Below, in pieces: positions 29,469 to 46,042 of a stretch of 64,000 bases of DNA. The stretch covers positions 43,893 through 107,892 of the IMG/VR virus record IMGVR_UViG_3300034071_001210; one strand, written 5' to 3'. The stretch's first letter is position 1. Every line of letters starts with the position of its first letter. The DNA comes from a virus (taxonomy: Duplodnaviria > Caudoviricetes). The notes beneath the pieces are model-generated. The model was not told where the DNA came from. It saw nothing but the letters and a program-made list of their open reading frames with translations, and searched no databases. A program made the position numbers and the translations under genes.

Positions 29469-29726
29469 TCATTGCACCTCGGGTGGTTCGTATCCCTTGC
29501 GGTAATCGCCCCCGCCGTTGCGGTCCGAGTCATCCTCGGGTGCCGAGTAGTCGAATGGGGGATCGATGTCGCTATCGTCCCCCCACACATCGTGCATGTC
29601 ATACCGCATCTTCTCGCGTTCCATAGCTTCAACCTCCCTATCCCAACAGGCAGGGCAGGCGCATGCAGCGGAACCCAGTGTGCAGGTGCGAGGAGTTTGA
29701 TCGTTATTGGCGTTGGTGCAGCTCAT
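29469..29726 (-). CDS. Leaderless early protein, Cys/acidic
   Basis: ATG 33 nt after promoter motif; CTLGSAACACPAC. Confidence 0.7.
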   Translation of the reverse strand: MSCTNANNDQTPRTCTLGSAACACPACWDREVEAMEREKMRYDMHDVWGDDSDIDPPFDYSAPEDDSDRNGGGDYRKGYEPPEVQ

Positions 29727-29759
29727 ACGAGAATTATACACGAATTTGTCGTGACTGCA
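29727..29759 (-). promoter_or_regulatory. Cassette promoter P1
   Basis: TGCAGTCACGACA-N8-TATAAT-N6-ATG. Confidence 0.85.
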
Positions 29760-29877
29760 GCATAGCAGCACGAATAAATTTATATTCGCGTAACCTGGCA
29801 AACCTGGCCCCACCTGGCAAACACAGGCAACAGCCCCCCTTTCGGGGGGCTGTTGGTTCCCTTCCCTCCCTCGAGGG

Positions 29878-30174
29878 TTATCCGCGGTTCAGGTAGCGTT
29901 CGTATGACTCGTCGTCCATCCGTTCGCCTGTACCGCTGTAGTAGCGGTCATCATCCCCTTCGCGGGGTTCATCCTCATCGTGGCAGGCGGGACCTGCATC
30001 ACAGGCACCCTCGCATGACTCACGATCCGCCTGTGCGTCCAAGTGTTCCTTCAAGTCCGCATCGCGGTCTGCGGCTTCGGTGCATCCGGGGCATAGCCCG
30101 TCTACGTATTGATCCATGCTCGTGCAGGTGCAGGGTAGGTCTGAGTGATTGACGGTGGTGGTGGTGTTTGCCAT
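29878..30174 (-). CDS. Leaderless early protein, Cys/acidic
   Basis: MANTTTTVN; CTC...CPGC. Confidence 0.7.
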   Translation of the reverse strand: MANTTTTVNHSDLPCTCTSMDQYVDGLCPGCTEAADRDADLKEHLDAQADRESCEGACDAGPACHDEDEPREGDDDRYYSGTGERMDDESYERYLNRG

Positions 30175-30207
30175 GTCGGTATTGTACTCGATCTTGTCGT
30201 GACTGCA
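30175..30207 (-). promoter_or_regulatory. Cassette promoter P2
   Basis: TGCAGTCACGACA-N8-TACAAT-N6-ATG. Confidence 0.85.
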
Positions 30208-30223
30208 GCGCAGGGGGTGAAAT

Positions 30224-30424
30224 TTATTTGTTGCAGCGCAGGGTTTCGCAGAACGCATCGTTGTCTGCCAAGTTCGCAGCGAGTTGATCGAGTTCCTGCG
30301 GAGTCATCGCGGCAAACTTAAACGCGGCAACTTCGGCTTCCAATTTGTTGATGCGAGCGTGCAGCGCAGCGATATTGTCCTGATTGACTTTCCATTCCGA
30401 GGGTATGTAGTTCTTTGGGTGCAT
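30224..30424 (-). CDS. Leaderless early small coiled-coil protein
   Basis: ATG at the fixed distance from P3. Confidence 0.7.
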   Translation of the reverse strand: MHPKNYIPSEWKVNQDNIAALHARINKLEAEVAAFKFAAMTPQELDQLAANLADNDAFCETLRCNK

Positions 30425-30457
30425 GGCGGTATTGTACGATACTTTGTTGTGACTGCA
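30425..30457 (-). promoter_or_regulatory. Cassette promoter P3
   Basis: TGCAGTCACAACA-N8-TACAAT-N6-ATG. Confidence 0.85.
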
Positions 30458-30505
30458 GGCCGCAGGCCGTCACCAATTTATCTAAATTTATTTGTGCTCC
30501 CCATC

Positions 30506-30538
30506 TGCAGTCACAACAAACTATCGTACAATACACTC
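30506..30538 (+). promoter_or_regulatory. Cassette promoter P4 (divergent from P3)
   Basis: TGCAGTCACAACA-N8-TACAAT-N6-GTG. Confidence 0.85.
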
Positions 30539-30928
30539 GTGCTACAGAACACCACCTCCACCCGTCCGATCCACTTCCACCTCCAAGCCTCGACTTTGCC
30601 GCTCTCCGCAATTCTGCTCGACCTGCCTGCTAACCTCCCTGCACGCTCCGCGTTCTTGTACAGCGTTCTCGACTCCGGTTGGATTCGTGTTGCGTTCCGC
30701 AAGGATGACGGCACCTGCACGATTCGACTCTGCACTCGCAACCCTACGCTTGTTGCCAAGTTCGGTTCGCGTTACGATGTTCAGGGTATCAAGAATTCGG
30801 AGTTCAATTCAAACGGTCTTGAAACCATCGTGTACTTCGACCATGCGGCAGGTGCGCTCCGGTGCTTCCGTGTGATGCGAGTCGATGGCTGCGGCATCGA
30901 TGCCGTCAGTATCGAGAACAACCACTAA
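30539..30928 (+). CDS. WYL_2/SH3-barrel protein
   Basis: IRVAFRKDDGT..IRLCTRN...YFDH....RCF; in-frame GTG at the promoter-defined position. Confidence 0.7.
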   Translation: MLQNTTSTRPIHFHLQASTLPLSAILLDLPANLPARSAFLYSVLDSGWIRVAFRKDDGTCTIRLCTRNPTLVAKFGSRYDVQGIKNSEFNSNGLETIVYFDHAAGALRCFRVMRVDGCGIDAVSIENNH

Positions 30929-30973
30929 CCCGAACGGGGGGGAGAATTTAAATATTCTCTCCCCCTCCGCGGC

Positions 30974-31006
30974 TGCAGTCACAACAAGATCGCGTATAAT
31001 GCACTC
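30974..31006 (+). promoter_or_regulatory. Cassette promoter P5 (no start codon at +1)
   Basis: TGCAGTCACAACA-N8-TATAAT-N6-ATA. Confidence 0.85.
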
Positions 31007-31090
31007 ATACCTACCCCGCCCGAAGCACCGCCCCTAAGTGGACAACCCCACTTCGAATGACAATGGGCACGCAGAGGCGGGGTAGGTTTC
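31007..31090 (+). ncRNA. Putative structured RNA or 5' leader
   Basis: 12-bp closing stem ACCTACCCCGCC/GGCGGGGTAGGT starting at the predicted TSS; inner helices GCCC/GGGC and AAGTGG/CCACTT. Confidence 0.5.
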
Positions 31091-31124
31091 CCGGTCACTC
31101 AAACTTAACTGAAAGGTCACAACA

Positions 31125-31322
31125 ATGCTCAAGATGATTATCGATGGTGGCTACCAAATGGTTTATGACGCTCAAGGATTGTGGGCTACCCTTGCTCACG
31201 GGTACACGATTGCCCCGGGACAAGAGTTGCAGTTTGCAGAACTCTTTCACTCCGGTACGGACGAGGAACGATTGCTGATCCGCAACAACTTGCTTCACCA
31301 GAAGCAGATGGAACTAATCTAA
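31125..31322 (+). CDS. Hypothetical protein
   Basis: GAAAGG RBS. Confidence 0.7.
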   Translation: MLKMIIDGGYQMVYDAQGLWATLAHGYTIAPGQELQFAELFHSGTDEERLLIRNNLLHQKQMELI

Positions 31323-31377
31323 CGAGGTGGTGCTCGAGACAAGATCCACGCCCCTTCGGGGGCGTGGATCTCATTGA

Positions 31378-31419
31378 TCTACTATCAGCACAGCCCTCTG
31401 GGGCTGTGCTGATAGTTGT
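31378..31419. repeat. ACTATCAG hairpin element H1
   Basis: 16-bp perfect stem 31381-31416 with TCT/TGT flanks. Confidence 0.9.
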
Positions 31420-31478
31420 GGTGGACGGTATGGATGCCGCCGATAACAAGAATATGAAATAAATTGTACACCCTACCC

Positions 31479-31511
31479 TGCAGTCACGACAATATCGCTT
31501 ACAATACGCCC
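31479..31511 (+). promoter_or_regulatory. Cassette promoter P6
   Basis: Consensus motif; ATG at 31512. Confidence 0.85.
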
Positions 31512-31964
31512 ATGCTCTGCACCACTTTCAACAGCGTCTTTGACCTCTTCGCCTCTAACTTCCGTTTCGCCGAGTGCCTGCGTTCCCCCCTCAAGACTGA
31601 GGTCGTGGATGAATTCACGATCCGCAACCGTTCCAACTACACTCGTGTTGAGTGTGGCAATACTTGGGGTTGGGTTGCAGACCTGAATGTCGGTGGCTTG
31701 CGTATCGCTCACACGAACGGATCGAACATGGCTGATGTGTCCACCCGTTCGCTCGATACCGATCACCAAGTGCGTTGCTCATATACTGCGGACGAACTCC
31801 GCAAGATGGCGTACACGATGTTGGCTGCGGCTAACCACATCGACACTCGCGATTCGGAGAAGAATCAACTACTTCGCCGTCCGAACGGTCAACCGCTCCG
31901 TAAGGAGTTCGTATCGTCCCCCGACTTTGACGAATACCTGAAGTACGAACTGAAGGCAGTCTGA
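31512..31964 (+). CDS. Leaderless early hypothetical protein
   Basis: Start set by P6. Confidence 0.75.
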   Translation: MLCTTFNSVFDLFASNFRFAECLRSPLKTEVVDEFTIRNRSNYTRVECGNTWGWVADLNVGGLRIAHTNGSNMADVSTRSLDTDHQVRCSYTADELRKMAYTMLAAANHIDTRDSEKNQLLRRPNGQPLRKEFVSSPDFDEYLKYELKAV

Positions 31965-32017
31965 ACCCTGGAAGGGAGGGACTAGAAAGAAATGAATAAT
32001 TTCTAGTCCCCCCCGTT

Positions 32018-32050
32018 TGCAGTCACGACAAACTAAGGTACAATACGCAC
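32018..32050 (+). promoter_or_regulatory. Cassette promoter P7
   Basis: Consensus motif; ATG at 32051. Confidence 0.85.
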
Positions 32051-32188
32051 ATGGCAGAGAACACCACCAAACCGGATGAAACCCCCCGCAAACCAATTCG
32101 CTGCAACGAAGGCACAGCCCGGGAAGCACGGCTGCGCGACTGCATTCGACTGCTCACCCCAATGAAAGTTCGCAAGGTATCGACATGA
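32051..32188 (+). CDS. 45-aa leaderless protein (absent from ORF track)
   Basis: MAENTTKPDETPRKPIRC...; ATGA overlap with next ORF. Confidence 0.7.
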   Translation: MAENTTKPDETPRKPIRCNEGTAREARLRDCIRLLTPMKVRKVST

Positions 32189-32421
32189 ACAGCACCCTCG
32201 AAATTACCCGGATCCGAAAGACAACCCGGACAATTGAACTGAACCCCAAAGAAATCGCCATCCTCCAGGATATGATCTTTCGCAGGAAGGTAGAGACAAG
32301 ATTGGAAATGAACGGTTACACCTACCGTGATGAATACGGTTCAGACTTTCAAATCGAAGCGGACTTCTACTATAAAGCGTTGGGATTTCTTCAGACCAAA
32401 CTTGACAACCTCACCAAGTAA
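32185..32421 (+). CDS. Hypothetical protein
   Basis: Translationally coupled ORF. Confidence 0.7.
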   Translation: MNSTLEITRIRKTTRTIELNPKEIAILQDMIFRRKVETRLEMNGYTYRDEYGSDFQIEADFYYKALGFLQTKLDNLTK

Positions 32422-32436
32422 AGGTAGACTACCAAC

Positions 32437-32700
32437 ATGAAACACGTTCCCAAGTCTCTGCTGTATGCTCAAGTGGACAACATCAACGCCGTATTGCAGA
32501 CCAAGCCCGGTAACCGATTAGTTCTGCAACACGCCTTCGGCGGGTTTCAGTTGCAGCAAGAGGTTATGTACCCTCCGTCATGTAGTGTAGGATTCATTTC
32601 AATCTCGACCGACTATGTGAGCAAGCGTGAAATGAACGATTATCTGAACGCACTTGTGGTGGGCATGGCACTCCGTGCTAACCAAGTGCAACCGATCTAA
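32437..32700 (+). CDS. Hypothetical protein
   Basis: AAGG RBS; LQHAFGGFQL. Confidence 0.7.
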   Translation: MKHVPKSLLYAQVDNINAVLQTKPGNRLVLQHAFGGFQLQQEVMYPPSCSVGFISISTDYVSKREMNDYLNALVVGMALRANQVQPI

Positions 32701-32771
32701 CGAGGTGGTGCTCGCAACAACTGAAGAGGATTCGTCCCTGCCCACCCTTCGGGGTGGGCTAGGTTGTTATA

Positions 32772-32810
32772 TCTACTATCAGATTTGGCCCCCCCAAATC
32801 TGATAGTTGT
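32772..32810. repeat. ACTATCAG hairpin element H2
   Basis: 14-bp stem 32775-32807, CCCCC loop. Confidence 0.9.
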
Positions 32811-32828
32811 GGATGGGACGGGACGGCC

Positions 32829-32848
32829 TGTGGATAACTTGTGGATAA
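32829..32848 (-). promoter_or_regulatory. Two tandem perfect DnaA boxes
   Basis: TGTGGATAA (= TTATCCACA) at 32829-32837 and 32840-32848. Confidence 0.55.
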
Positions 32849-32877
32849 GTATTTCAAATAATTTTATGCTCACTTGC

Positions 32878-32910
32878 TGCAGTCACGACAATATCGCTTA
32901 CAATACCGAC
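32878..32910 (+). promoter_or_regulatory. Cassette promoter P8
   Basis: Consensus motif; ATG at 32911. Confidence 0.85.
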
Positions 32911-33495
32911 ATGAACACCACCACCACCACCAACGTCCGAAACCGAGCCTACTACGCCGCAGAGAATGCTATCCTCAACTGCCGTGCTACTATGAACTTC
33001 CGCTCTCTTGCCGAGTGTGCTACGCCCGATGTCCGTGCTGCTGCCGAGACATGGTACGCCGAGGCGGGTCAGTTTGCTCGAGACCTCCCGCGTCACGATT
33101 GGTCATTCGAAACTGCCTGCGCTGTAGTCGCGGCATTCTCGCCTCGGATCCGATGGGATCAGAATAAGCGTAAGGCGTTCCAATACGCTCATGGCATCAT
33201 GCCAAAGGGTCTGCGCTCCCATATTGCCGCCGCAGACCGATGCGTAGCCAAAGGATTCGATGGCTTGGATGGTCTGAAGACAAACGCCTTTGCCCGGGCT
33301 ATTGCCGGGGATCTGAATGCGGTCGTGATCGACATTTGGATGTGTCGGGCTGCGGGGCTCGGTAAGGATTCGCTGACAACCGGACAGTACCGTGCAATTT
33401 CCGATGCCGTGCGAACGGTAGCCCGGGAGCACAACATGGCTCCCGCCGTTATGCAGGCACTGATTTGGATCGTGGTCAGGGGGAAGGCACAATGA
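32911..33495 (+). CDS. Conserved phage protein, possibly HhH DNA-glycosylase-like fold
   Basis: WY, AAFSPR..W..N, GLKTNAF, VVIDIWM, MQALIW motifs. Confidence 0.6.
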   Translation: MNTTTTTNVRNRAYYAAENAILNCRATMNFRSLAECATPDVRAAAETWYAEAGQFARDLPRHDWSFETACAVVAAFSPRIRWDQNKRKAFQYAHGIMPKGLRSHIAAADRCVAKGFDGLDGLKTNAFARAIAGDLNAVVIDIWMCRAAGLGKDSLTTGQYRAISDAVRTVAREHNMAPAVMQALIWIVVRGKAQ

Positions 33496-33629
33496 ACCAC
33501 CGCCCCGGCAAATTCGTCCACGATGCCTTTCGCGAAGGGATTCGCCTGCGCTCCAAAACCTGGGGCAAGAAAACGCGGGATCCCCGGAAGGCTCGGAGGG
33601 ACGGGAAACAGGAACTCCGTTCAATCTAA
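33492..33629 (+). CDS. Small basic protein (45 aa)
   Basis: ATGA overlap; MNHRPGKFVHDAFREG. Confidence 0.55.
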   Translation: MNHRPGKFVHDAFREGIRLRSKTWGKKTRDPRKARRDGKQELRSI

Positions 33630-33662
33630 CAATATCACCGGAAACGGTGATATTTTTTATTA

Positions 33663-33703
33663 TCTACTATCAGGATTTGGCCCATCTAAATCCTGATAGT
33701 TGT
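33663..33703. repeat. ACTATCAG hairpin element H3
   Basis: 13-bp stem plus G-T/G-C pairs, 33666-33700. Confidence 0.9.
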
Positions 33704-33762
33704 CCAGGACGGGATGGACTTGACCGATAATAATAATATGAAATAATTTGTACACCCTGTGC

Positions 33763-33795
33763 TGCAGTCACGACAATTTGTATTACAATACCGAC
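33763..33795 (+). promoter_or_regulatory. Cassette promoter P9
   Basis: Consensus motif; ATG at 33796. Confidence 0.85.
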
Positions 33796-34191
33796 ATGAA
33801 GAACGCCACCTCCATCATCTCCGTCCTCCTCATTCCCGCAGACCTCACCAAGCCATGCAGCATGGTCAACATCCGTAAGGGTGACTACGCTCTGATCGAT
33901 ATGTACAAGTGGATGGACTGCGACTATGTGCAACGCCTCGAAACTCCCAAGAAGAACATGATTCTGTGGGTTGACGAAGAGGGAAGCATCGAGTCGCTCA
34001 AGCGCAAGCCTGTACTCAATGTTCGCGGCAGTATTCTTGCCGGACAGCCAATCATGGGCAACGTGATTCTTGCCGGACAAGATTCCCTGTACGGTGTTGA
34101 CGGTATCGAGTTTGGTACCGTCAAGGAAATGATCAAGCGTCTTGAGAACAGCGCACAGCAAGTGATTGCCGAACATCCTTCCCTGAAATAA
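33796..34191 (+). CDS. DUF3846-like protein
   Basis: LWVDEEG, LNVRGS, IMGNVIL motifs. Confidence 0.7.
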   Translation: MKNATSIISVLLIPADLTKPCSMVNIRKGDYALIDMYKWMDCDYVQRLETPKKNMILWVDEEGSIESLKRKPVLNVRGSILAGQPIMGNVILAGQDSLYGVDGIEFGTVKEMIKRLENSAQQVIAEHPSLK

Positions 34192-34263
34192 TGAGGTGGT
34201 GCTCAGGGGGATGGGATTCGTTCCCATCCCCTACCGCCCTCAAATAAATCTTTCTTTCTTCTG

Positions 34264-34296
34264 TGCAGTCACAACAAACCCAGGTATAATACTCAT
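34264..34296 (+). promoter_or_regulatory. Cassette promoter P10
   Basis: Consensus motif; ATG at 34297. Confidence 0.85.
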
Positions 34297-34596
34297 ATGA
34301 CAATGACAACCACCGACATCTCTGAACTTCGTACTCTCCTCTCAGGAGGATATGTCGTAAATGTTTCCTTCACAAAGAAGGACAGGACAATACGCGAAGC
34401 CCAGATCACTCGTAACCTGCGATTGATGCCGATGACATCTCATCCAAAGAATGTTCGTAAGGTGGATCCGAAATACATCTTCGCGTTTGATATTGATAAG
34501 CAAGATTGGATTTGCTTTCACGAATCACAGTTCGTTTCATTGTCTCATCCTTGGCGCTTGGAGAACGAACAACTAGCATTATGCCAGGGGGCTTGA
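34297..34596 (+). CDS. WYL_2/SH3-barrel protein
   Basis: VSFTKKDRTIREAQITRN...FDIDKQDWICF. Confidence 0.75.
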   Translation: MTMTTTDISELRTLLSGGYVVNVSFTKKDRTIREAQITRNLRLMPMTSHPKNVRKVDPKYIFAFDIDKQDWICFHESQFVSLSHPWRLENEQLALCQGA

Positions 34597-34706
34597 TCAG
34601 CCCTATAACCGCCATCGGTGCAACGAGAAGCGGCAGTATGAGAGTCTCAATAGAGTCCTGGGCTTATACTAATAGCCACCCTTCTTTAAGGGTGGTTATT
34701 TTATTA

Positions 34707-34748
34707 TCTACTATCAGGAAGTCGCCCCCTCGACTTCCTGATAGTTGT
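34707..34748. repeat. ACTATCAG hairpin element H4
   Basis: 15-bp perfect stem 34710-34745. Confidence 0.9.
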
Positions 34749-34803
34749 GGACGGCATGGACGGTACCGATAACAAGAATATAAAATAATTTGATATACCT
34801 GTT

Positions 34804-34836
34804 TGCAGTCACGACAGGATCGTATACAATACCGTC
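34804..34836 (+). promoter_or_regulatory. Cassette promoter P11
   Basis: Consensus motif; ATG at 34837. Confidence 0.85.
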
Positions 34837-35028
34837 ATGACCACACCCGAACCTTATAACACCGTTGAAGACTTCATGGATACCGATGAACCCACCGAGG
34901 CTGAAATGATTGCCGAACTGATGGAGGAAGGCTACACACAGGACGAAGCCAAGCGTATGATCGGTGACGAGTACGATGCCGATGATGAAGACTCCTACGA
35001 GCCACTCGAAGACGAGGATTCAGAATGA
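34837..35028 (+). CDS. Very acidic small protein (possible DNA mimic)
   Basis: 63 aa, D/E-rich, leaderless. Confidence 0.7.
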   Translation: MTTPEPYNTVEDFMDTDEPTEAEMIAELMEEGYTQDEAKRMIGDEYDADDEDSYEPLEDEDSE

Positions 35029-35339
35029 GTTACAAGATGACCATCCATATGAAGAAAGCCAGGGCAAGCCCCTTTGAGAAGACCTTTGAAAGACGAGCAG
35101 AGAGAATGCTCGCTCTTGTGATGCGTACTCTTGTCAGAGTAGACTTTGGTGACAAGGATGTAGGAATCTTTATTGAGAACTGCCCTATGGTTAACATCCC
35201 GATGGGATTTCTAAAGTTTGATGACAAGCGTTGGACGGGAAAAGAAATTGCTCAGTTTTGCAAATATATTGATCTTTCTTCTGAGTTTGGCGTTAATGTC
35301 ACCTTCCTCGACCCCGAACCTGTTACAATACCAACATGA
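35025..35339 (+). CDS. Hypothetical protein
   Basis: ATGA-coupled. Confidence 0.7.
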   Translation: MSYKMTIHMKKARASPFEKTFERRAERMLALVMRTLVRVDFGDKDVGIFIENCPMVNIPMGFLKFDDKRWTGKEIAQFCKYIDLSSEFGVNVTFLDPEPVTIPT

Positions 35340-35554
35340 TCCCATCCACCACCAACATCTCCGACCTGATTGAAACCATTCGCAAGTTTGTCGATGAGAC
35401 TCCGGATTGGATGGAGAGCGACAAATATGTTGCTAGGCTTGGAGTTGCATACCACATTCTCACAACAATGTCTGACCCGGATATGGTCACAGACGAAGAG
35501 TACGAGTTCATCATCGCCATTCACAACACCATCAAGGAACGGAACGCACAATGA
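35336..35554 (+). CDS. Hypothetical protein
   Basis: ATGA-coupled. Confidence 0.7.
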   Translation: MIPSTTNISDLIETIRKFVDETPDWMESDKYVARLGVAYHILTTMSDPDMVTDEEYEFIIAIHNTIKERNAQ

Positions 35555-35895
35555 GTACAAACAAGTTTGAAGGATTCTTCGAGAGTGACAACCACCCCGC
35601 CATGAAGATGGTTGTTCCAACACCATCACAGATCATTGAGACTCTGATGATGATCTGCGGACAGAATCATCAGTTCTACAAGGATGCAAGCATTCGCCTT
35701 ATCATCTGTGGTGGACTTGATGTTGTCGAGAAGCACATCATCAAGGCTCGTGATGAAGGACGGGATCCCGGCATTCATGTTGGCTACGCAGCCTTTATGA
35801 TGCTTCTTGCGGATCGCATGGTGGATTCGTATGATGACTACGCAGGTGACAAAGAACGCGAACTGTTTCCTCTTCAGTATGATGAGGATGAATGA
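35551..35895 (+). CDS. Hypothetical protein
   Basis: ATGA-coupled. Confidence 0.7.
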   Translation: MSTNKFEGFFESDNHPAMKMVVPTPSQIIETLMMICGQNHQFYKDASIRLIICGGLDVVEKHIIKARDEGRDPGIHVGYAAFMMLLADRMVDSYDDYAGDKERELFPLQYDEDE

Positions 35896-36054
35896 TTTCA
35901 ATACACAGCCTCACATAAGTCAGTTAAATTAGAGCGCAGTAGATGCTTCGAAATTACGACTGCCGTGGGGCAACCGTAGCAGCCAATTTCCTGGCTTGCC
36001 GTATGAAAAAAGGTATGCGGGTGGAGACCCGGCTACAACAGGGTCTCCAAGTTT

Positions 36055-36127
36055 GGGAACGTAGCGCAGTTGGTAGCGCAAATGACTTTTAATCATTTGG
36101 TCGTGGGTTCGAGCCCCACCGTTCCCA
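36055..36127 (+). tRNA. tRNA-Lys(UUU)
   Basis: Cloverleaf GGGAACG/CGTTCCC, anticodon loop CTTTTAA, TTCGA T-loop. Confidence 0.93.
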
Positions 36128-36137
36128 CTAAGGAGAT

Positions 36138-36383
36138 ATGATGAAAACGGCAGAAATTAAAACCTTGCAGAAGACATTGAAAGCCATCAAAGACAATGAC
36201 GTTAAAGATGCTGTTCACTATATGATTAAGTTTCTACATGAACACGGTCATGCAGTTGCCATCTTCACGCCAGAGGAAATGGTTGAAACTACAGCCACAG
36301 ATGAGGAGATTGAAGAGTCGATGATTACTGCTGGGTTTATGACAATGGATTGCTTTAAGATCAACAAAGAAGAAGACGAATAA
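36138..36383 (+). CDS. Hypothetical protein
   Basis: AAGGAG RBS. Confidence 0.7.
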   Translation: MMKTAEIKTLQKTLKAIKDNDVKDAVHYMIKFLHEHGHAVAIFTPEEMVETTATDEEIEESMITAGFMTMDCFKINKEEDE

Positions 36384-36392
36384 GGAAACATC

Positions 36393-36689
36393 ATGACAGA
36401 TCGAGATCATTGTATGGAAGTCGTGAAGGCGTATGACAAAGTAACCATCGTGATGGATTGCATCATGGAGCATTGGTTAGAAGGCAACTGCAATCCACCC
36501 AAGGAACTGATCGATGAGTACTTCGAGACAAAGGATGCAGCCCTTCAGGCGTTGTATAATGACTTCGAGAACATCAAAGCGAATCAAGTCTTTGCTGAAC
36601 GAACTCGTGGTATGAACAGAGCATTTTATAAAAAAATTGATAAACAATTTGGAGTAACTGAAACGCCCATGTTGTTTGAAGAGGATTGA
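36393..36689 (+). CDS. Hypothetical protein
   Basis: AAGGA RBS. Confidence 0.7.
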   Translation: MTDRDHCMEVVKAYDKVTIVMDCIMEHWLEGNCNPPKELIDEYFETKDAALQALYNDFENIKANQVFAERTRGMNRAFYKKIDKQFGVTETPMLFEED

Positions 36690-36694
36690 TTTAC

Positions 36695-36767
36695 GGCACG
36701 GTAGTCCAAAGGCAGAGACAAACGACTTAAAATCGTTCAAGTGTGGGTTCGACTCCCACTCGTGCTA
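36695..36767 (+). tRNA. tRNA-Leu(UAA), short variable arm
   Basis: GGCACGG/TCGTGCT acceptor, AACGA-CTTAAAA-TCGTT. Confidence 0.88.
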
Positions 36768-36772
36768 CATCT

Positions 36773-36846
36773 ATTCCCGTAACTCAGTTGGATAGAGTAA
36801 CAGATTTCTAATCTGTAGGTCGTTGGTTCGAATCCAACCGGGAATG
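36773..36846 (+). tRNA. tRNA-Arg(UCU)
   Basis: ATTCCCG/CGGGAAT acceptor, ACAGA-TTTCTAA-TCTGT. Confidence 0.92.
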
Positions 36847-36977
36847 CTTGACTTGATTGAAAGGAGAGACATAATGTATTCAATACCATATTTTATGTTT
36901 GACGGTGTTCATAAAACCGTATAGCGGTAACCTACGGTTGCACGGACAAAGAGGCATCCGTATGAAGGCTTCATTAC

Positions 36978-37052
36978 AGAAGGGTGGCTGAAATTAGATA
37001 TAGCGCACACCTTATAAGTGTGAGTATATGGGTGCAATTCCCATCCCTTCTA
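36978..37052 (+). tRNA. tRNA-Ile(UAU), non-canonical T-loop
   Basis: AGAAGGG/CCCTTCT acceptor, CACAC-CTTATAA-GTGTG, T-loop TGCAATT. Confidence 0.8.
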
Positions 37053-37054
37053 TT

Positions 37055-37366
37055 ATGAAAACTATTAAAACTCATATTCCCCAATTTCACTTTGAACCAT
37101 TACTAATGATGTCTTGGCAAGTAGACCATGATGTGATCCATTTCAAGATGGAAGATGCTTTTGACATTGAAGAAATTGATCTTCGTTTAGTCGTTGGTCT
37201 TACTGATGATGGGATGCCTTCTGTTGATGAAGATGACATCATTGAGGCTGTTGCTGAATCCGTTTACGGTCATGAGTATGAGGTGTATCCGTACAAGGCA
37301 ATTCGTTTTCTGAAAAACGATTTGATTCCATATATAAACGAACATTTTCCAAAACCCATTTCATAA
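37055..37366 (+). CDS. Acidic hypothetical protein
   Basis: ATG directly after tRNA-Ile. Confidence 0.65.
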   Translation: MKTIKTHIPQFHFEPLLMMSWQVDHDVIHFKMEDAFDIEEIDLRLVVGLTDDGMPSVDEDDIIEAVAESVYGHEYEVYPYKAIRFLKNDLIPYINEHFPKPIS

Positions 37367-37466
37367 GTTCCTGCCCGTGAGAGTCGTCTGGGTCATACCA
37401 TCTTAATCTTCTTTAAGATTAAGATAACATGGGATATGACGCTCCTACACGGGCAGGAACTTTTTT
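37365..37466 (+). terminator. Long (~100 nt) hairpin followed by U-tract
   Basis: AAGTTCCTGCCCGTG/CACGGGCAGGAACTT outer stem, ATCTTAATCTT/AAGATTAAGAT inner stem. Confidence 0.65.
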
Positions 37467-37474
37467 ATTAATAA

Positions 37475-37516
37475 TCTACTATCAGGAGTTCCTTTATTGG
37501 AACTCCTGATAGTTGT
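37475..37516. repeat. ACTATCAG hairpin element H5
   Basis: 15-bp perfect stem 37478-37513. Confidence 0.9.
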
Positions 37517-37573
37517 GGATGGGACAGGACGTGACCGATAATAATAATGTCAAATATTTGCTCAACCCAATCT

Positions 37574-37606
37574 TGCAGTCACAACATTTGCGGTTACAAT
37601 GTACAT
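37574..37606 (+). promoter_or_regulatory. Cassette promoter P12
   Basis: Consensus motif; ATG at 37607. Confidence 0.85.
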
Positions 37607-38551
37607 ATGAACAGCGACAACTACAATTTCTTATCGTCTGATGTCTCCCTCGTCCCTGCCAAGAACGACACCTTCGTTCCGTGGGGTCACTTCGAGGACA
37701 TCGCAACCATCCTCGCCTCCAAGCACTTTGCTCCCGTGTACATCACGGGTATGTCGGGCAACGGCAAGACCACTATGGTCGAGCAGATCTGTGCGTCTGC
37801 CGGACGCGAGATCATTCGCGTCAACATCACCGCCGAGACTGATGAAGATGACCTCATCGGTGGATTTCGTCTTATCAACGGTGAAACCAAGTTCGTGTTC
37901 GGTGGCGTGATTCAAGCCATGCAGCGTGGAGCGATTCTGCTCTTGGATGAGATCGACCTTGGTTCGGAGCGCATGATGTGCTTGCAGCCTGTGCTTGAAG
38001 GCAAGGGCATCTATGTGAAGAAGATCAGTCAGTATGTGCGTCCTGCTGCCGGGTTCAACATTGTTGCTACTGCCAACACCAAGGGCAAGGGCGAGTCTGA
38101 TCGGTTTGTCGGTACTCGTGTTATGAACGAAGCGTACCTTGATCGGTTCTCGTATTGGTTCGAGCAGGACTACGCGGACAAGACCATCGAAGCCCGTATC
38201 ATCATTCGCAAGATGGGTGCATTCGGCAAGGTGGACAAGGAGTTTGCTCAGTACCTCACGAAGTGGGCGGATACAATTCGTCTTGGCTTCAAGGAAGGTG
38301 GACTCGATGACATTATCACGACTCGCCGACTCGAAGAGATCTGCAAGGCATTCGCCATCTTCGGCAACAAGGAGAAGGCAATCAAGTTGACTCTGACGCG
38401 ATTCGATGCGTCAACCAAGGAGGCGTTCTACAATTTGTACACGAAGATCGACCCAACAATTCTGCCCGTGCCTGAAGGCATGGACAAGCCAATTCAGTAT
38501 GCAGGACAGCAGCCTGTTGCTCCGGACACTAACTACGCCGTTAACGCCTAA
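37607..38551 (+). CDS. MoxR/CobS-like AAA+ ATPase
   Basis: GMSGNGKT Walker A, LLLDEID Walker B, ATANTKGKG, NEAYLDRF, ITTRRL. Confidence 0.92.
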   Translation: MNSDNYNFLSSDVSLVPAKNDTFVPWGHFEDIATILASKHFAPVYITGMSGNGKTTMVEQICASAGREIIRVNITAETDEDDLIGGFRLINGETKFVFGGVIQAMQRGAILLLDEIDLGSERMMCLQPVLEGKGIYVKKISQYVRPAAGFNIVATANTKGKGESDRFVGTRVMNEAYLDRFSYWFEQDYADKTIEARIIIRKMGAFGKVDKEFAQYLTKWADTIRLGFKEGGLDDIITTRRLEEICKAFAIFGNKEKAIKLTLTRFDASTKEAFYNLYTKIDPTILPVPEGMDKPIQYAGQQPVAPDTNYAVNA

Positions 38552-38569
38552 CCGAAAGAGGACACTACC

Positions 38570-38848
38570 ATGCCATATCTTAACAAGCGCAATCGTTTCA
38601 TCGCAGCCGCAAAGCAGTACGCCGAGGATCACAAGAAGAATAATTTCTTCTTCACCAAGGACGAACTCAGGACAATCGCTTCTTCCATCAACATGAAAGG
38701 CGCACCAACCTGGGTGTTGAATGAATGCAAATGTGATGTTCGTACTCTTGCTCACAGCAAGAAGTGCTACGACATGAGTGCTTTGATTCAGCCTGTTTCA
38801 GTTCCCGTGATGGTTCCAAGTATTGTGGTTCACCCAGTCTCAGTCTGA
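38570..38848 (+). CDS. Hypothetical protein
   Basis: GAGG RBS; lies between AAA and VWA genes. Confidence 0.7.
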   Translation: MPYLNKRNRFIAAAKQYAEDHKKNNFFFTKDELRTIASSINMKGAPTWVLNECKCDVRTLAHSKKCYDMSALIQPVSVPVMVPSIVVHPVSV

Positions 38849-38914
38849 CGCTGTTTGTAGTGTTTAATGTGACATAGACACGACCTCTCCCACTCGTTGT
38901 GGGTGAGGTTGCTG

Positions 38915-38955
38915 TCTACTATCAGGATTCGGCCCCTCTGAATCCTGATAGTTGT
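38915..38955. repeat. ACTATCAG hairpin element H6
   Basis: 13-bp stem plus G-T/G-C pairs, 38918-38952. Confidence 0.9.
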
Positions 38956-39014
38956 GAAGGACAGGATGGGACTGGCTGATAATAATAATATGAAATAATT
39001 TGGTGGGTATGGTT

Positions 39015-39047
39015 TGCAGTCACGACAGTATCGGTTACAATATGCAC
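39015..39047 (+). promoter_or_regulatory. Cassette promoter P13
   Basis: Consensus motif; ATG at 39048. Confidence 0.85.
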
Positions 39048-41126
39048 ATGAACACATCTCTCTCCATCTTCGCCAAGGCACTCGCGTCCGAAAACCTCTC
39101 GTTCTCCTTTAGCAACAAGGCTGAGACTGCATCGTTCGATGTCAAGTCCCGGCACCTCGTCATGCCCATTTGGAAGGTTTCCGAAACGGTGCAGACCATG
39201 TTGATCGCCCATGAGATCAGTCACGCCCTGTGGACTCCTTACGAGTTGTCCCGTACTCTCCTTGATGCTGCCGAAGCCGAGGGGTACAAGATCGACAAGT
39301 TGCAGCGTATCGCCAACATGATCGAGGATGTTCGTATTGAGAAGTTGATGAAGCAGAAGTTCCCCGGTACTCGCCGTGACTTCTTCTTGGGGTACAAGGA
39401 GATCAACGACCTTGACCTCTTTCAGTTCAACACCTTGGACTTGAGTGCCATGACTCTCAACTCTCGCCTCAACATTCACTTCAAGTGGGGTGTTCCGGGA
39501 TTCATTGATGTTCAACTCTCTGCCCAAGAGCAGGAGATCGCGGATATGGTGGACAGCGTTGTCACTTTCGAGCAGTGCATCGAATTGGCAAAGTACCTGT
39601 ACGGTGATCCGGATGCTGATGGCAAGAAGCATGAAGTCGAGGACAACAACAAGGGTTTGGCATTAGGAAACTCTATCGATGGTTCTCAAGATCCTTCGTT
39701 TGAGAATATGTTGAGTGGATTGGCAAGTCGCAAGGGTTCGCCGTTGGCTTCCACGACTGTGGTCATCGGTGGAGTGAAGGACTTGAACCGACAGATCATC
39801 AGCACCGAGCAGGTGTTGGAATCGTTCACCATTCATCCTTGGGCAGAAGAGACTCTCAACAACACCCCTGACCTCACGGCATACCGTACCTTCGTCCGTG
39901 AGTCTGATGCATTCGTTCGTCAGTTGGTTGCTCAGTTCGAGCGCAAGAAGGCAGCGGACGAGATTCGCCGTGAACGCCCAAAGCAGACGGGTCAGTTGAA
40001 CCTTGATCGTCTTCATCAATACCGCACCCATGACGATATCTTCCTGTCGAAGATCGTTAAGAAGGATGGCAAGAATCACGGGGTCATCTTTATGATCGAC
40101 TTCTCCGGTTCGATGCAGCCTACGCTCAATCACGCAATCCTTCAGGTTCTTCAGTTGGTTTGGTTCTGTGAGAAGGCAAAGATTCCGTTTGAGGTGTTTG
40201 GCTTCACCGATGTTGGTGAGCATTACATTCCGAACCAACCCGGTTTCGTCAAGGGTCAGGATTCACTTGCGAATGAAGCGCATACTTGCCGTAACAGTAT
40301 TCGCTACGGTGATGCTCGACTGATTACGCTTGCTTCATCCCGTGACGATGCGGCAAAGCGTGAACAACTTCTTGCCCTTGTCTACGAGACTTTCGTAACC
40401 AACACCCGTATGACTCCTGCAACGCTTCGTCTGAGCGGAACCCCAACGGTGGAAACTGTGGCTGTTGCTTCACAGTTTATGAAAGAGTGGATTGTGGCAA
40501 ACAATGTGCAGATTCCTACGCTCATGGTTGTCACGGACGGTGAGCCAAATGGTTTCAACCTTGTGAACGATGCCACAGATTACACCACCTATGGTGATGC
40601 AGGAAGTCTGACTGTGGTGAACCATGTTGCCGATACCGTGACTCGAACTACGATTACGAATCGTGACAATCTGTCGAACGCAGTCATCAGTACGATGCTT
40701 GATTCGATGCGGACAAAGTTTGGTGCGAGAATCGTTGGAATGTTTGTTGGTGGTAACAAGGCATTGCCTACCGGGATTTACAATAAGTTCTGCATTGCAT
40801 ACAACGAGAACAACTCGTACCAAGATCACGAACGATACTTGGCTGCAAGTGAGATGTACAAGTCTGAAGGTTGCATTCTTGCTCACTCCGAATGCTCACA
40901 AGGATACGATGAGTTCTTCATCATCAAGACTCCGCAGATCGTCAAGGACGAGGACGCGATTGCCGATAGCGGAACCTTCACCAAGATCAAGAACACCTTC
41001 ATTCGTACAATGGGTAAGCGTTCTTGCAGTCGAGTGTTCCTCTCACGGTATGTGGACATTGTGTCCGGACAGCCTATTCGTAAGGGGGCTGATGCTCTCT
41101 ACGGAAAGAAGACGGCTAATGCATAA
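39048..41126 (+). CDS. CobT-like protein: N-terminal HExxH domain and C-terminal VWA domain
   Basis: AHEISHALWTP, NMIEDVRIEK, MIDAS DFSGSM, LSGTP, VTDGE. Confidence 0.88.
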   Translation: MNTSLSIFAKALASENLSFSFSNKAETASFDVKSRHLVMPIWKVSETVQTMLIAHEISHALWTPYELSRTLLDAAEAEGYKIDKLQRIANMIEDVRIEKLMKQKFPGTRRDFFLGYKEINDLDLFQFNTLDLSAMTLNSRLNIHFKWGVPGFIDVQLSAQEQEIADMVDSVVTFEQCIELAKYLYGDPDADGKKHEVEDNNKGLALGNSIDGSQDPSFENMLSGLASRKGSPLASTTVVIGGVKDLNRQIISTEQVLESFTIHPWAEETLNNTPDLTAYRTFVRESDAFVRQLVAQFERKKAADEIRRERPKQTGQLNLDRLHQYRTHDDIFLSKIVKKDGKNHGVIFMIDFSGSMQPTLNHAILQVLQLVWFCEKAKIPFEVFGFTDVGEHYIPNQPGFVKGQDSLANEAHTCRNSIRYGDARLITLASSRDDAAKREQLLALVYETFVTNTRMTPATLRLSGTPTVETVAVASQFMKEWIVANNVQIPTLMVVTDGEPNGFNLVNDATDYTTYGDAGSLTVVNHVADTVTRTTITNRDNLSNAVISTMLDSMRTKFGARIVGMFVGGNKALPTGIYNKFCIAYNENNSYQDHERYLAASEMYKSEGCILAHSECSQGYDEFFIIKTPQIVKDEDAIADSGTFTKIKNTFIRTMGKRSCSRVFLSRYVDIVSGQPIRKGADALYGKKTANA

Positions 41127-41147
41127 GGCTTAGTAATACAAAGCACA

Positions 41148-41185
41148 GACCCCGTACCTGGAAGGAGAGAGCCAGGTACGGGGTT
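41148..41185 (+). terminator. Hairpin after VWA gene
   Basis: ACCCCGTACCTGG/CCAGGTACGGGGT. Confidence 0.65.
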
Positions 41186-41196
41186 ATGTCATTGCA

Positions 41197-41235
41197 GCTA
41201 CTATCAGATCCTTCTTTTCAGGATCTGATAGTTGT
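41197..41235. repeat. ACTATCAG hairpin element H7
   Basis: 13-bp perfect stem 41200-41232 followed by GGACGGGATGGACGG. Confidence 0.9.
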
Positions 41236-41368
41236 TATCGGACGGGATGGACGGTACGGACGATAACCGCGGATGGCCTCAAAGATTCTGTAATAAATTC
41301 GAGCTAATCTGAATTGTGGTACAGTTGCTTGACTACCCCCATATATGGTGTATAGTATAAGTCTGTTC

Positions 41369-41674
41369 ATGCGCCCTATAATCCCCGAGTCCTACGTGAA
41401 ATATTCTCGTCCTTATAGGACTCGGGGTTATGGGACGTTACATGTTATCGGTATGTCATTTCTTCTCAGTATTCTGAGCCTTGCATTGGTTATAGGCTGT
41501 GCTATACTATTCATGATACTCGCAGGTATTATTCACCCTTCCAGAATACTCGGACAGTATTCAGCTGGACAAGATTCTCAAAAAATTCTGAATATTTCTG
41601 AGGGCCCAGAAGAAAAAATCTACTATCAGGGCTTCCTGGATGTCTACCGTATGCGTAGGCCGGACGGGATCTAG
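41369..41674 (+). CDS. Possible membrane protein (doubtful)
   Basis: Hydrophobic stretch; TTGACT promoter at 41329; 3' end overlaps a degenerate hairpin element. Confidence 0.35.
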   Translation: MRPIIPESYVKYSRPYRTRGYGTLHVIGMSFLLSILSLALVIGCAILFMILAGIIHPSRILGQYSAGQDSQKILNISEGPEEKIYYQGFLDVYRMRRPDGI

Positions 41675-42072
41675 ACTCGGACGGGACCTGGAGAGGGTTC
41701 GGCTACTCTCCTCTCTGGGTCCTGGACGGGATATAGCGTTTTGTAAGGCTATTGCAGTTTTTTAAGAATATTTGCGTACTTCCAGGTACTTCCTGGATGG
41801 CGTTTGTCAAATTCTCTAAGAAATTGCAAATATTTAATAAAATTTGTAGTATTTACTTGACTCGTAGAATCGATTCTAAGCCCTTGGGGGGTCTTGGACG
41901 CGATTTGATGCCTTGAAGGTGCTCAAAGGGCTCTAAGGGGGGTTCAGAGACGATTAGAGGGGGTTTGGGTGACACTCACTAACTGTACATCCCTCAAATT
42001 TTCTTTAAATTTCTTCACCCACTTAGTAATTTTCATTCCCCACAATGCCCCATAATACCCCACTCCATTATT

Positions 42073-42474
42073 TTAATCTTTTTTCTTCTCTTCTCCATCA
42101 ATATTTTCTAAATCTTTTTGAGTAATTACATATGCCTTGATACTCTTCTTATGTTCTATATCGTGTGCTTTCTTTACTCTATTCAATCCGTCTGCTACTG
42201 ATATGGTTCCATCCTTGAGTTTGATTCCCAATATTGGATAACTGGTATCTGCATCCATCATTCTTTTCTTGTGATTCTTATTATCCATATCGTATTGCTT
42301 GTTCCACCATTTTAATGCGTCTGTATCTTTGATGTCTACAGTTACTTGTTTAGTATGTTTTTTAGCCCATGCGTATACATCAGCAACTTTGTAATCCTTA
42401 TTGGTTACATCAGAATGCATTTTCTGATCTTTCCAATTTTCTGCTTCTGCTAAAAATTCTTTAAATTTCTTCAT
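42073..42474 (-). CDS. ParB/Srx-like protein with capsid-targeting leader
   Basis: MKKFKEFLAE; ADTSYPIL...VADGLNRVKKA. Confidence 0.7.
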   Translation of the reverse strand: MKKFKEFLAEAENWKDQKMHSDVTNKDYKVADVYAWAKKHTKQVTVDIKDTDALKWWNKQYDMDNKNHKKRMMDADTSYPILGIKLKDGTISVADGLNRVKKAHDIEHKKSIKAYVITQKDLENIDGEEKKKD

Positions 42475-42478
42475 GGTA

Positions 42479-42676
42479 TTACTCTCCTCCACCACCATCT
42501 CCACCACCTTCACCACCACTCTCTCCCTCTGTATTATGTTCATGTCCATAGAAATTAAACCCATAATATGGTGATGTATATCTCTTTGCTTTCTTCTTGG
42601 TTCTTTTCTTTTTCTTTTTGGGCATATCAAGATAAACATCATAGTTTTCTTCTAAAAATTCTTTAAATTTCTTCAT
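42479..42676 (-). CDS. Small basic protein with capsid-targeting leader
   Basis: MKKFKEFLEE; K-rich core, G-rich tail. Confidence 0.7.
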   Translation of the reverse strand: MKKFKEFLEENYDVYLDMPKKKKKRTKKKAKRYTSPYYGFNFYGHEHNTEGESGGEGGGDGGGGE

Positions 42677-43209
42677 TGTTTTGTTCCGTGTATAATTCCC
42701 TTTTCCAATTTTGCATCAGGAAATGTTACTTGTACTGTCTTTAAATAATCTCTTAATCTTTGATTTCGTTGCCATGAGTCTTTTCCAGTCTGCTTTCCTG
42801 CTCCCGATCTATCTCCTTCGTAAACATCAACATAGACTCTTCCACCCGGTTTCAGGGCATCGTGGGCTTGTTGAAGTACTGTATGATGATCTGTCTCATC
42901 CTGTATGACATTCAGTACATTGAAGAGTGATGCGGTATCTGCCTGCCCTGATCCGGCTGTTTGTAATACTCTTTCATTGTGGTCGGCTGGTCGATTGTAT
43001 GGATCATAAACATAAGCACGTACTTGACGATCTCCCAAGAAGTCTGTTCCCATATCATGTTTACCACCACCAATGTCAATATGAGTCGTATCTTTTTGCC
43101 AACCATGAAGTTTCTCTACAGTTTTAAAGGCTTGGGCTACTTGAGGTCTTGAAGTTGCCGCAGAAGTAATATTCTGGTCTTCTAACAAAAATTCTTTAAA
43201 TTTCTTCAT
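42673..43209 (-). CDS. Class I SAM-dependent methyltransferase with capsid-targeting leader
   Basis: MKKFKEFLLE; IDIGGG, YDPY, NVLNVI, LKPGG. Confidence 0.8.
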   Translation of the reverse strand: MKKFKEFLLEDQNITSAATSRPQVAQAFKTVEKLHGWQKDTTHIDIGGGKHDMGTDFLGDRQVRAYVYDPYNRPADHNERVLQTAGSGQADTASLFNVLNVIQDETDHHTVLQQAHDALKPGGRVYVDVYEGDRSGAGKQTGKDSWQRNQRLRDYLKTVQVTFPDAKLEKGIIHGTKQ

Positions 43210-43265
43210 GGTATAATATTTATTGAATAGTTGACTTATTGGTATTATGTTCTATAATTAATCCC

Positions 43266-43805
43266 ATGAGAAATGCAAATTTACCTTATCACCTATATGT
43301 AAATGTTAAAAATTCATTTCTTGGGCAGAATATGCCTGATGGGTATACACCTGCCATGTGGCACGCTGTGTATTCTCGTCCCGGTCAGTTGATCTGCTGC
43401 CATGTGATTCTTCAATCAGGTGCTCATTGGTCAGGTCTTCCGTTGTCTGCCTTATCGACTACTGATGTATTTGATGATAATAGTAATATTAACATTCAAC
43501 CTTGGGGTGGAATGGGAAATAATATTGAAACTTTTATGGCAACCTACTTAGAAGGGCTTTCCGTGAATGTCTTTCGTGCAGAAAAAGAGGGTAGGCACAC
43601 CGGAATTATACTTGATTGGGAAGATGGGTATTCTCGTTACCCTGCTGAACATAAGCCTCTAAGTCTTATTGCTCTTGACTGTGGATACTTTGCTCTCGTT
43701 CCCAATAATTACTTTACGGTGAAGGATAAGCATTTTGTGAATGATAAACATTCAAATAATTTAAAATTTTATAAACGTGGTGAGACTGTCTATTGGGAGC
43801 GTTAA
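43266..43805 (+). CDS. Conserved phage hypothetical protein
   Basis: TTGACT...TATAAT promoter; SGAHWSGLPL, EHK, PNN motifs. Confidence 0.7.
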   Translation: MRNANLPYHLYVNVKNSFLGQNMPDGYTPAMWHAVYSRPGQLICCHVILQSGAHWSGLPLSALSTTDVFDDNSNINIQPWGGMGNNIETFMATYLEGLSVNVFRAEKEGRHTGIILDWEDGYSRYPAEHKPLSLIALDCGYFALVPNNYFTVKDKHFVNDKHSNNLKFYKRGETVYWER

Positions 43806-44206
43806 GTATTTCTCTTTGTAGGGGATACTTTGTTTCCTGATGCTCCATGCATTCCTACTCTTGACTTCTCTGCCTTCTTACTCTTGAGTTCCTTTGATGA
43901 CATCTCTGAGGCTGTCTTTGGGGTCTTCTTGCTGACTCTCTTGCTTGGTCTGCAATACTCATTCTTTCCCCCTGCACCACAATCCTTGCCAGTCTTGGTA
44001 TCTTTCCACTCCTCTGCCTCCCAGCGTTTCAGATTGGCTCCCTCTTTCGACTTCTTGACATCACCCTTGCCTTTGCGGCATTTGGCGGTTGCTTGGGCTG
44101 CTCTGGCTGACCACTTACCATATGAGTTCATGGCTTGTCGGTAACAGGCATCCTTCTCTTCATAGAGATCATTTGATTCTGCTAAAAATTCTTTAAATTT
44201 CTTCAT
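43802..44206 (-). CDS. Basic protein with capsid-targeting leader (DUF5872-like)
   Basis: MKKFKEFLAE; KDACY, WSARAAQ, LKRWEAEEW, CRPSKRVSKKTPKT. Confidence 0.7.
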   Translation of the reverse strand: MKKFKEFLAESNDLYEEKDACYRQAMNSYGKWSARAAQATAKCRKGKGDVKKSKEGANLKRWEAEEWKDTKTGKDCGAGGKNEYCRPSKRVSKKTPKTASEMSSKELKSKKAEKSRVGMHGASGNKVSPTKRNT

Positions 44207-44262
44207 GGTACAATATTTATTGATTTAATTGACACACATCTTGAGTGTGTTATACTACATCA

Positions 44263-44721: not shown

Positions 44722-44758
44722 TACTTTACTGTTGGTGATCTTGATGTATACTAACTCT

Positions 44759-45193: not shown

Positions 45194-45223
45194 CATTTAC
45201 CCTACATAAGGTATCATATTGGT

Positions 45224-45460: not shown

Positions 45461-45462
45461 AA

Positions 45463-45726: not shown

Positions 45727-45727
45727 A

Positions 45728-45910: not shown

Positions 45911-46042
45911 TATGACTAACTTTGTAAGTTTTGTTGCTATTATGGCTGCTCTTGTACTTGGACTTGCAATACTTTCAATTGGTTTTGCCGTTGTATTATC
46001 AATTGCTATTCGTGCATTTGAAGCAAATTAATAAGGATTCTA

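Follow-up and report, generated by a model that had tools for sequence, protein, structure and literature searches.

The closest described systems to the one reported here are the programmed nicks of T5/BF23, the phiKMV-like phages and phage tf, which lie at one bond of a short consensus (TACT/RTGMC in tf, CCTA/CTCCGG in phiKMV) and cluster in part of the genome (PMC3517423, PMC10644984). What they are for has been an open question since T5 (PMC3517423); during laboratory handling, the DNA of T5/BF23 comes apart at these pre-existing nicks (PMC10644984). A second point of reference is the promoter(early) stem-loop (PeSL) of T4-like genomes, in which a terminator, an AT-rich tract and a strong sigma70-type promoter are repeated through a variable early region; the PeSL papers leave open whether a dedicated protein targets these cassettes (PMC2839356, PMC4122927). 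Here we analyse 64,000 nt from the genome of an uncultured T4-like lake phage (positions 43,893 to 107,892 of IMG/VR record IMGVR_UViG_3300034071_001210; hereafter, the window) in which seven hairpin elements separate early transcription units. On balance, we think it probable that these elements are paired inverted sites for a sequence-specific strand-cutting activity, with the nick and firebreak roles proposed below.

The breaks described here share with the T5/BF23, phiKMV-like and tf nicks a single bond in a short consensus and a clustered distribution. The tf and phiKMV consensus sequences also have letters in common with CTACT^ATC (the caret marks the broken bond), which may be chance. 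Whereas the known nicks affect one strand, are unpaired, have no fold-back end and belong to siphoviruses and podoviruses, those in the window and its relatives affect both strands, in pairs 27–92 nt apart, at the terminator–promoter junctions of a T4-like myovirus. The setting, a repeated terminator, AT-rich tract and promoter in a variable early region, is that of the PeSLs, but the single stem-loop of a PeSL is its terminator, whereas the seven hairpins have no U-tails and a separate upstream hairpin fits that role. A PeSL also has a Shine–Dalgarno site, whereas starts in the window look leaderless; and no cut site is known for PeSLs, whereas the elements are a second hairpin, of DNA type, whose arms are invariant and whose break has been mapped. 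As to gene exchange, a PeSL trait, cassette content varies in a fixed order (17 genomes), and there are two mosaic cases, one a tract spanning element 4 (contig L244) and the other a breakpoint at an uncut promoter (L231). The elements thus function like the T5, phiKMV and tf nicks minus the one-strand trait, and they sit in a PeSL-like cassette without being the PeSL stem-loop. The literature that we searched, with incomplete coverage, holds no description of the C(T/A)ACTATC motif and none of nicks that occur in pairs in a T4-like phage.

The original prediction, made from the letters of the window, had listed seven hairpins of 33–36 nt, and all seven are exact matches (Table 1; 0 in 100 shuffles). 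Their inner stems differ from copy to copy and are fully complementary in each, as had been claimed: across 19 uninterrupted copies, 240 of 240 cells (100%) are paired, with 41 two-sided changes and no one-sided (G-U) change, a level reached by 0 of 500 shuffles, although the copies are kin and this result is not a probability. The suspicion that the hairpins are not terminators is borne out for the copies in the window, none of which is terminator-like; U-tails are absent, and the separate hairpin noted just upstream is present before each of the seven. The outer 8 bp had been called invariant, and the arms are indeed conserved, but they extend further outward (CTACTATC / GATAGTTG), with a T:T mismatch at position 2. 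A right flank that always reads TGT holds within the lineage of the window, but most relatives have GATAGTAG.

The first sign of a break was two viral contigs that start precisely at the ATC of a left arm. Metagenome contigs were then searched with a pattern that omits CTACT, so that starts at ATC could appear, and nine more exact ends were recovered, three of them on the bottom strand at the right arms of interrupted elements, 15–25 nt from any stem (L187, L189 and L190). Among these relatives, 11 of the 33 ends near an arm are exact (0.08 expected). Contigs of the window's own lineage were fetched by protein and hence blind to the motif; here, of 77 true contig ends, 22 coincide with the bond to the base, against 0.07 expected; they are 15 left-arm starts, 6 right-arm ends and 1 start at an arm that has no hairpin, so that both strands are represented. 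The offsets from the bond are 0 in 32 cases, –1 in one and +2 in one; the end of L041 reads CTACTA, with the T retained. An arm of the CAAC type is also cut. Four contigs are whole cassettes cut at both ends (L222, L226, L234 and L243), and L222 corresponds to 37481–38949 of the window, a single cassette. In this lineage, 21 encounters with an element are broken and 65 are spanned. The use of read ends as a signal of pre-existing termini is accepted (PMC3896407), and we consider it very likely that a large share of molecules have both strands broken, or breakable, at CTACT^ATC.

Repeats and strain variation are frequent break points in assemblies, and many relatives have T-runs behind the stem, so the ends could be library or assembly artefacts at hairpins, and the elements RNA signals (terminators or RNase III sites) or plain operators. 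We regard this as extremely improbable: ends are base-exact where no hairpin starts, no contig ends at the foot of any other hairpin, terminator hairpins included, and exact ends recur across JGI and ENA, different centres and different assemblers. Two loose scans of viral sequences gave chance matches for the most part, and one of them served as a further control: 0 of its 80 chance matches to the pattern start at base 1. An RNA signal also fits poorly with stems that have no G-U pairs in the uninterrupted copies, with the lack of RNA tetraloops, with loops that invert freely and with the absence of an Rfam match, the search of the region having returned tRNAs only.

Comparison with relatives (50–60% protein identity) identifies the conserved unit. 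From 23 relatives, 97 element copies were parsed, one of which is a chance match, and what is invariant among them is the 8-mer C(T/A)ACTATC, once per strand. Most copies of relatives (81) are interrupted, with the right arm displaced outward by 4–61 nt, and in 78 of the 81 a perfect stem of 9–14 bp (mode 12) begins at the ATC or TC of the left arm. Of the uninterrupted copies, the form that all seven in the window have, 14 of 15 carry CAACTATC in one arm. In lineage G002 the arms are in tandem on a single strand, with the stem still 5' of the predicted cut, and this is the only lineage with one-strand sites at element positions. Elements are confined to the early-gene island at fixed positions, up to 6–7 per genome, and the cassette order is constant across 17 genomes while small genes are acquired or dropped. 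The supposed degenerate copy at about 41620 proved instead to be a single arm without a hairpin, kept about 400 bp past the last element at the matching place in nearly all relatives read.

Base pairing in the elements differs from that in the terminators upstream of them. G-U pairs make up 5 of 1,173 pairs in element stems versus 147 of 1,725 in the terminators, UUCG or GNRA loops occur in 1% versus 15%, and bulges are found in 0 of 96 element stems. Loops are inverted between near-identical strains; at element 4 both orientations were seen. Pure Watson–Crick stems with flipping loops indicate a DNA feature rather than an RNA one, and an RNase III site or other RNA element was rejected because there is no RNA-type pairing, no fixed loop strand and no Rfam family. 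Some of the covariation may be due to fold-back copying directed by the nick, which flips loops, and not to selection alone. Separately, in L248 (positions 1–32) the interior of element 3 resembles element 2 of the window, a similarity that suggests conversion between paralogous elements.

The arm without a hairpin (one contig, L255) and the distant right arms are cut at the same bond as the others, which argues for recognition by sequence; the fold most likely acts after the cut. The idea of an extruded structure read by a protein is therefore retained in part: pairing is maintained and a protein would act at the stem base, but recognition of an extruded structure is not supported. These cuts also make it barely credible that a junction resolvase (RuvC-like or endonuclease VII) acts on the base of an extruded cruciform, despite the perfect stems, the symmetric cuts in the window's copies and a conserved protein with a RuvC-like motif. 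An endonuclease VII open reading frame (ORF) at 44263 is absent from five relatives and was rejected as the enzyme.

Several points weigh against the strand-cutting explanation. Cutting is deduced from assembly ends and thus indirectly; such ends cannot separate a nick from an abasic or otherwise labile site, or virion from infected cell, nor can they prove that both cuts lie on one molecule. Lakes or series are shared by many of the contigs, so that P values overstate independence and are indicative only. The 8-mers are not depleted elsewhere, an isolated one at 13045 is unbroken in contigs that reach it (look-ups favour long, gene-intact contigs), and the one-strand tandem sites of G002 gave no exact end in 9 contigs (a sample biased to long contigs). 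Either single nicks at 13045 and in G002 were sealed in library preparation or context is needed; the site at 13045 and the undepleted 8-mers suggest that context or pairing matters for cutting. A T-run follows the stem in 45 of the 81 interrupted copies, where the stem may double as a terminator. No phage ATP-dependent ligase was found in five partial genomes, and for the cutting enzyme there are conserved candidates only: an HNH protein (HNH_5), gp4 (TnsA-like; 11095–11532), gp17, the RuvC-like protein and DUF7178.

The geometry of the breaks points to how they might work. The stagger gives 5' overhangs of 27–30 nt in the window and 34–92 nt in relatives that can fold on themselves, a perfect stem of 10–16 bp beginning at the new 5' end (–8 to –16 kcal/mol; –16.2 for element 1). 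The overlap duplex is more stable than the two hairpins by 11–21 kcal/mol in the window and by 24–71 kcal/mol in interrupted copies, so the genome would stay joined until unwound or heated. We propose that each element consists of two inverted sites recognised by an activity that is most likely phage-encoded and that would break C(T/A)ACT^ATC once on each strand in a large proportion of genome copies, leaving adjacent early transcription units (promoter, genes and terminator) joined only by the overlap. By analogy with T5, phiKMV and tf, the breaks are likely to be ligatable nicks in mature DNA.

Enzymes of the RecBCD type load poorly on folded or long-overhang ends. We tentatively suggest that the nicks serve as firebreaks, a possibility to which we give somewhat less than even weight. 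The overlap would stay paired until a helicase–nuclease or a fork unwinds it; the pieces would then separate, each freed 5' end would fold into a hairpin cap, and degradation would halt at the cassette border, such that the next early unit survives. Distinct interiors could let ends re-pair in the correct order, such ends could also feed T4-type recombination, and fold-back copying from the 3'-OH at the nick would account for flipped loops and perfect stems. A bolder and rather doubtful extension is that the early region in the virion is a chain of self-contained units joined by individually labelled cohesive overlaps, which after entry could come apart into mini-chromosomes with hairpin caps, able to withstand host nucleases and to be re-joined later through annealing or recombination, in effect a pre-segmented double-stranded DNA phage genome.

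The main alternative to the firebreak is a role in replication or recombination, and both can coexist. Breaks made in the infected cell would supply 3'-OH ends that prime strand-displacement or fold-back synthesis, and double breaks would seed T4-type recombination-dependent replication with allele exchange at cassette borders. The same contig-end data fit, the loop flips show DNA synthesis or strand transfer at the site, and the island closes with an origin-like block, iteron-like repeats and the single arm; in addition, genes like UvsX, UvsY, UvsW and gp46/47 were recognised by sequence and position in genome G003, and the L244 mosaic tract runs across element 4. Fill-in from both nicks would, however, run off after 27–90 nt, the order of cassettes is fixed in 17 genomes, and the L231 breakpoint lies at an uncut promoter; we consider this alternative unlikely. 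Contigs L233 and L235 fold back at element 4, but L233 has unlike arms, which makes a closed end less likely than a chimera of two strains. The G003 contig (L015, L077) carries core genes and overlaps itself at element 1 at 126 kb, so the genome may be near complete at about that length despite a CheckV estimate of 70%.

Packaging enzymes offer another source of staggered breaks. Lambda cos has one site per genome and leaves a 12-nt, non-folding 5' overhang; the elements have staggered nicks, a cohesive overhang and flanking repeats as cos does, but at seven internal sites and with self-complementary overhangs. They could be multiple cos- or pac-like sites at which terminase (gp16/gp17) cuts to initiate packaging; small terminase would then bind the GGAC and TTATNGGAC repeats. 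The repeats lie on one side, gp16 and gp17 are encoded, and the staggered nicks resemble lambda cosN (PMC3896407), the overhang being likewise 5'. Yet a start cut would hit each of the seven sites in a small minority of molecules, against the 21 breaks to 65 spanned; contigs exceeding read length carry a cut at each end; the two sides of the cut are represented to about the same extent, at seven positions rather than at the single cut of a packaging terminase; and T4 has no known defined pac site (PMC9958956). A packaging origin is very unlikely.

Other systems share parts of the design. The termini of N15 (protelomerase), parvoviruses and poxviruses are cut, fold back and flip-flop between two loop orientations, as the elements do; the elements are internal, however, and no tyrosine integrase (PF00589), Y1 HUH (PF01797) or protelomerase (PF16684) gene was found in five partial genomes. 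The original prediction had offered attC sites, REP/HUH substrates, N4 hairpin promoters and RNase III sites as analogues, all of which fail on their defining features. Integron attC and REP/RAYT share fixed ends around a variable paired interior. For attC, the arms differ from the RYYYAAC/GTTRRRY cores, there are no extrahelical bases (0 of 96 stems bulged) and no integrase (five partial records), and the order is unshuffled in 17 genomes. For REP/RAYT, GTAG lies 3' of the stem rather than at its 5' foot, and the same five records lack a Y1 transposase. The N4 hairpin promoter is a short stem with a conserved 3-nt loop read by the virion RNA polymerase, whereas the elements have stems of 10–16 bp, free and flipping loops and a separate sigma70-type promoter downstream. 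Chi-like (GATAGTAG versus GCTGGTGG), CsrA-sponge (GGA repeats), primase-site and Cas12a-repeat ideas were dropped, as none predicts base-exact ends.

Among the candidate enzymes, the HNH protein (L199, 6695–7231; 73–78% identical in three genomes; not in the window) is a first guess by analogy with phage HNH nickases. The RuvC-like N-terminal motif was spotted by eye and has no Pfam support. The DUF7178 protein of the island suggests a different chemistry, in which a glycosylase/lyase (or a modification) takes out or marks the T that precedes ATC, where the strand then comes apart in vivo or in library preparation. Its model best matches the 8-oxoG glycosylase 3n0u (Z 12.6, root-mean-square deviation 3.4, 167 aligned), the catalytic residues K123 and D141 of the HhH-GPD fold, 18 residues apart, are invariant in 20 relatives, its gene is the one that directly follows an element in 13 of the 17 genomes compared, and lyase cleavage would leave a 5' end at ATC. 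We nevertheless judge a base lesion highly unlikely: the family is widespread (2,295 representatives, including mycobacteriophages and other unrelated phages), we know of no 8-bp specificity for this fold, and the end of L041 keeps the T. A conserved NUMOD-repeat DNA-binding protein (62304–62903) is a candidate specificity factor with a poor model (pLDDT 50) and no evident nuclease domain.

The T4-like assignment of the window rests on a baseplate wedge protein, gp32, gp4 and a CobS/CobT-like pair; gp23 was found in three relatives, and the closest named phages are only about 53% identical in it. GC content is raised at bases 28–42 kb, the early-gene island. Cassettes there repeat the order stop codon, terminator-like hairpin, element, GGAC/GGAT repeats, AT-rich tract, promoter and short genes, and six of the seven hairpins end 89–101 nt ahead of a start codon, upstream of a shared repeated promoter that has seven further copies without a hairpin. 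The function of the 13 promoter copies is predicted from their consensus; the ATG mostly lies 6 nt downstream of the –10 box, and island mRNAs are probably leaderless. A back-to-back promoter pair at 30429–30534 marks the divergence point of the island.

Table 1 Features of the early-gene island and the elements (positions in the window; cuts and overhangs are inferred)
Feature	Position	Strand	Hairpin match	Inferred cut or overhang	Contig ends and remarks
Element 1	31379–31418		31381	cuts 31383/31384 (top), 31413/31414 (bottom); 30-nt fold-back overhang	arms CTACTATC / GATAGTTG; L228, L234, L238 start at 31384
Element 2	32773–32809		32775	overhang 32778–32804	L229, L243 start at the orthologue's ATC
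Element 3	33664–33702		33666	overhang 33669–33697	L226, L240, L244, L246, L247, L248 start at ATC
Element 4	34708–34747		34710	overhang 34713–34742	L226, L231, L234, L237, L243 end at bottom-strand cut 34742
Element 5	37476–37515		37478	overhang 37481–37510	L216, L222, L223, L224 (100% identical to the window) start at 37481
Element 6	38916–38954		38918	overhang 38921–38949	L222 ends at 38949
Element 7	41198–41234		41200	overhang 41203–41229	no exact end in the window's lineage; right arm of orthologue is an exact end in L190
Single arm, no hairpin, no partner	41620–41629	+		cut 41624/41625	L255 starts at 41625
Putative early promoter, 13 copies	29700–39050	10 on +, 3 on –			TGCAGTCACRACA then TAYAAT
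DUF7178 protein, HhH-GPD glycosylase/lyase fold	32911–33495	+			Pfam; model pLDDT 91; minor enzyme candidate
Four tRNA genes	36055–37052	+			inside cassette between elements 4 and 5
CobS-like AAA+ ATPase	37607–38551	+			PHROG 249; cassette between elements 5 and 6
CobT-like/peptidase-vWA protein	39048–41126	+			PHROG 459, 5298; cassette between elements 6 and 7
Conserved, mainly non-coding block at the island's end, about 800 bp	41235–42040	+			layout matches in relatives read

The closing block, with a promoter at 41329, TTATNGGAC and GGACRGGAT repeats, the single arm and AT-rich tracts, appears origin- or pac-like. From 41329 to 41480 the promoter is followed by a conserved start, and relatives also have a long hairpin on CCGATAA/TTATCGG; the transcript is a candidate non-coding or primer RNA without an Rfam match. 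Two tandem perfect DnaA boxes (TGTGGATAA) at 32829–32848, just past element 2, may be variants of the GATAA motif of the spacers. A conserved motif, GAGGTGGTGCTC, directly follows the stop codons at 31322, 32700 and 34190 and recurs in relatives, and a hairpin with the loop AAGGAGAGAG lies behind the CobT-like gene (17 copies); both are possible RNA–protein or ribosome-binding elements. Two of three WYL_2 (Sm-like) genes (26032–26604, 30539–30928 and 34297–34596) lie inside the island, and their products are possible readers of the GGAC repeats or of RNA motifs. Several minus-strand ORFs in 42073–48391 share an MKKFK(E/D)FL(A/E)E-type N terminus (repeat families D5, D11 and D14), which may serve to target internal proteins to the capsid. 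ORF 44669–45193 carries a PEP-CTERM-like C-terminal sorting signal (score under 0.9) that hints weakly at a host from the PVC group of bacteria; a host search in GTDB genomes returned one unrelated contig, from which the motif is absent.

Paired breaks on both strands at one exact base would be new for a T4-like phage, the known programmed nicks being one-stranded and from other phage groups. Because the junctions are fixed and regulatory, involve both strands and have a built-in folded end, specific functions of nicks become testable, and a targeted activity is supplied for the question left open by the PeSL work (PMC2839356). A new nicking activity with 8-bp specificity is indicated, and nicking is extended to a T4-like group that is abundant (major capsid protein at least 73% identical in at least 80 contigs). 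Breakpoints in assemblies can serve to map the DNA breaks of uncultured phages and can explain the fragmentation of such genomes.

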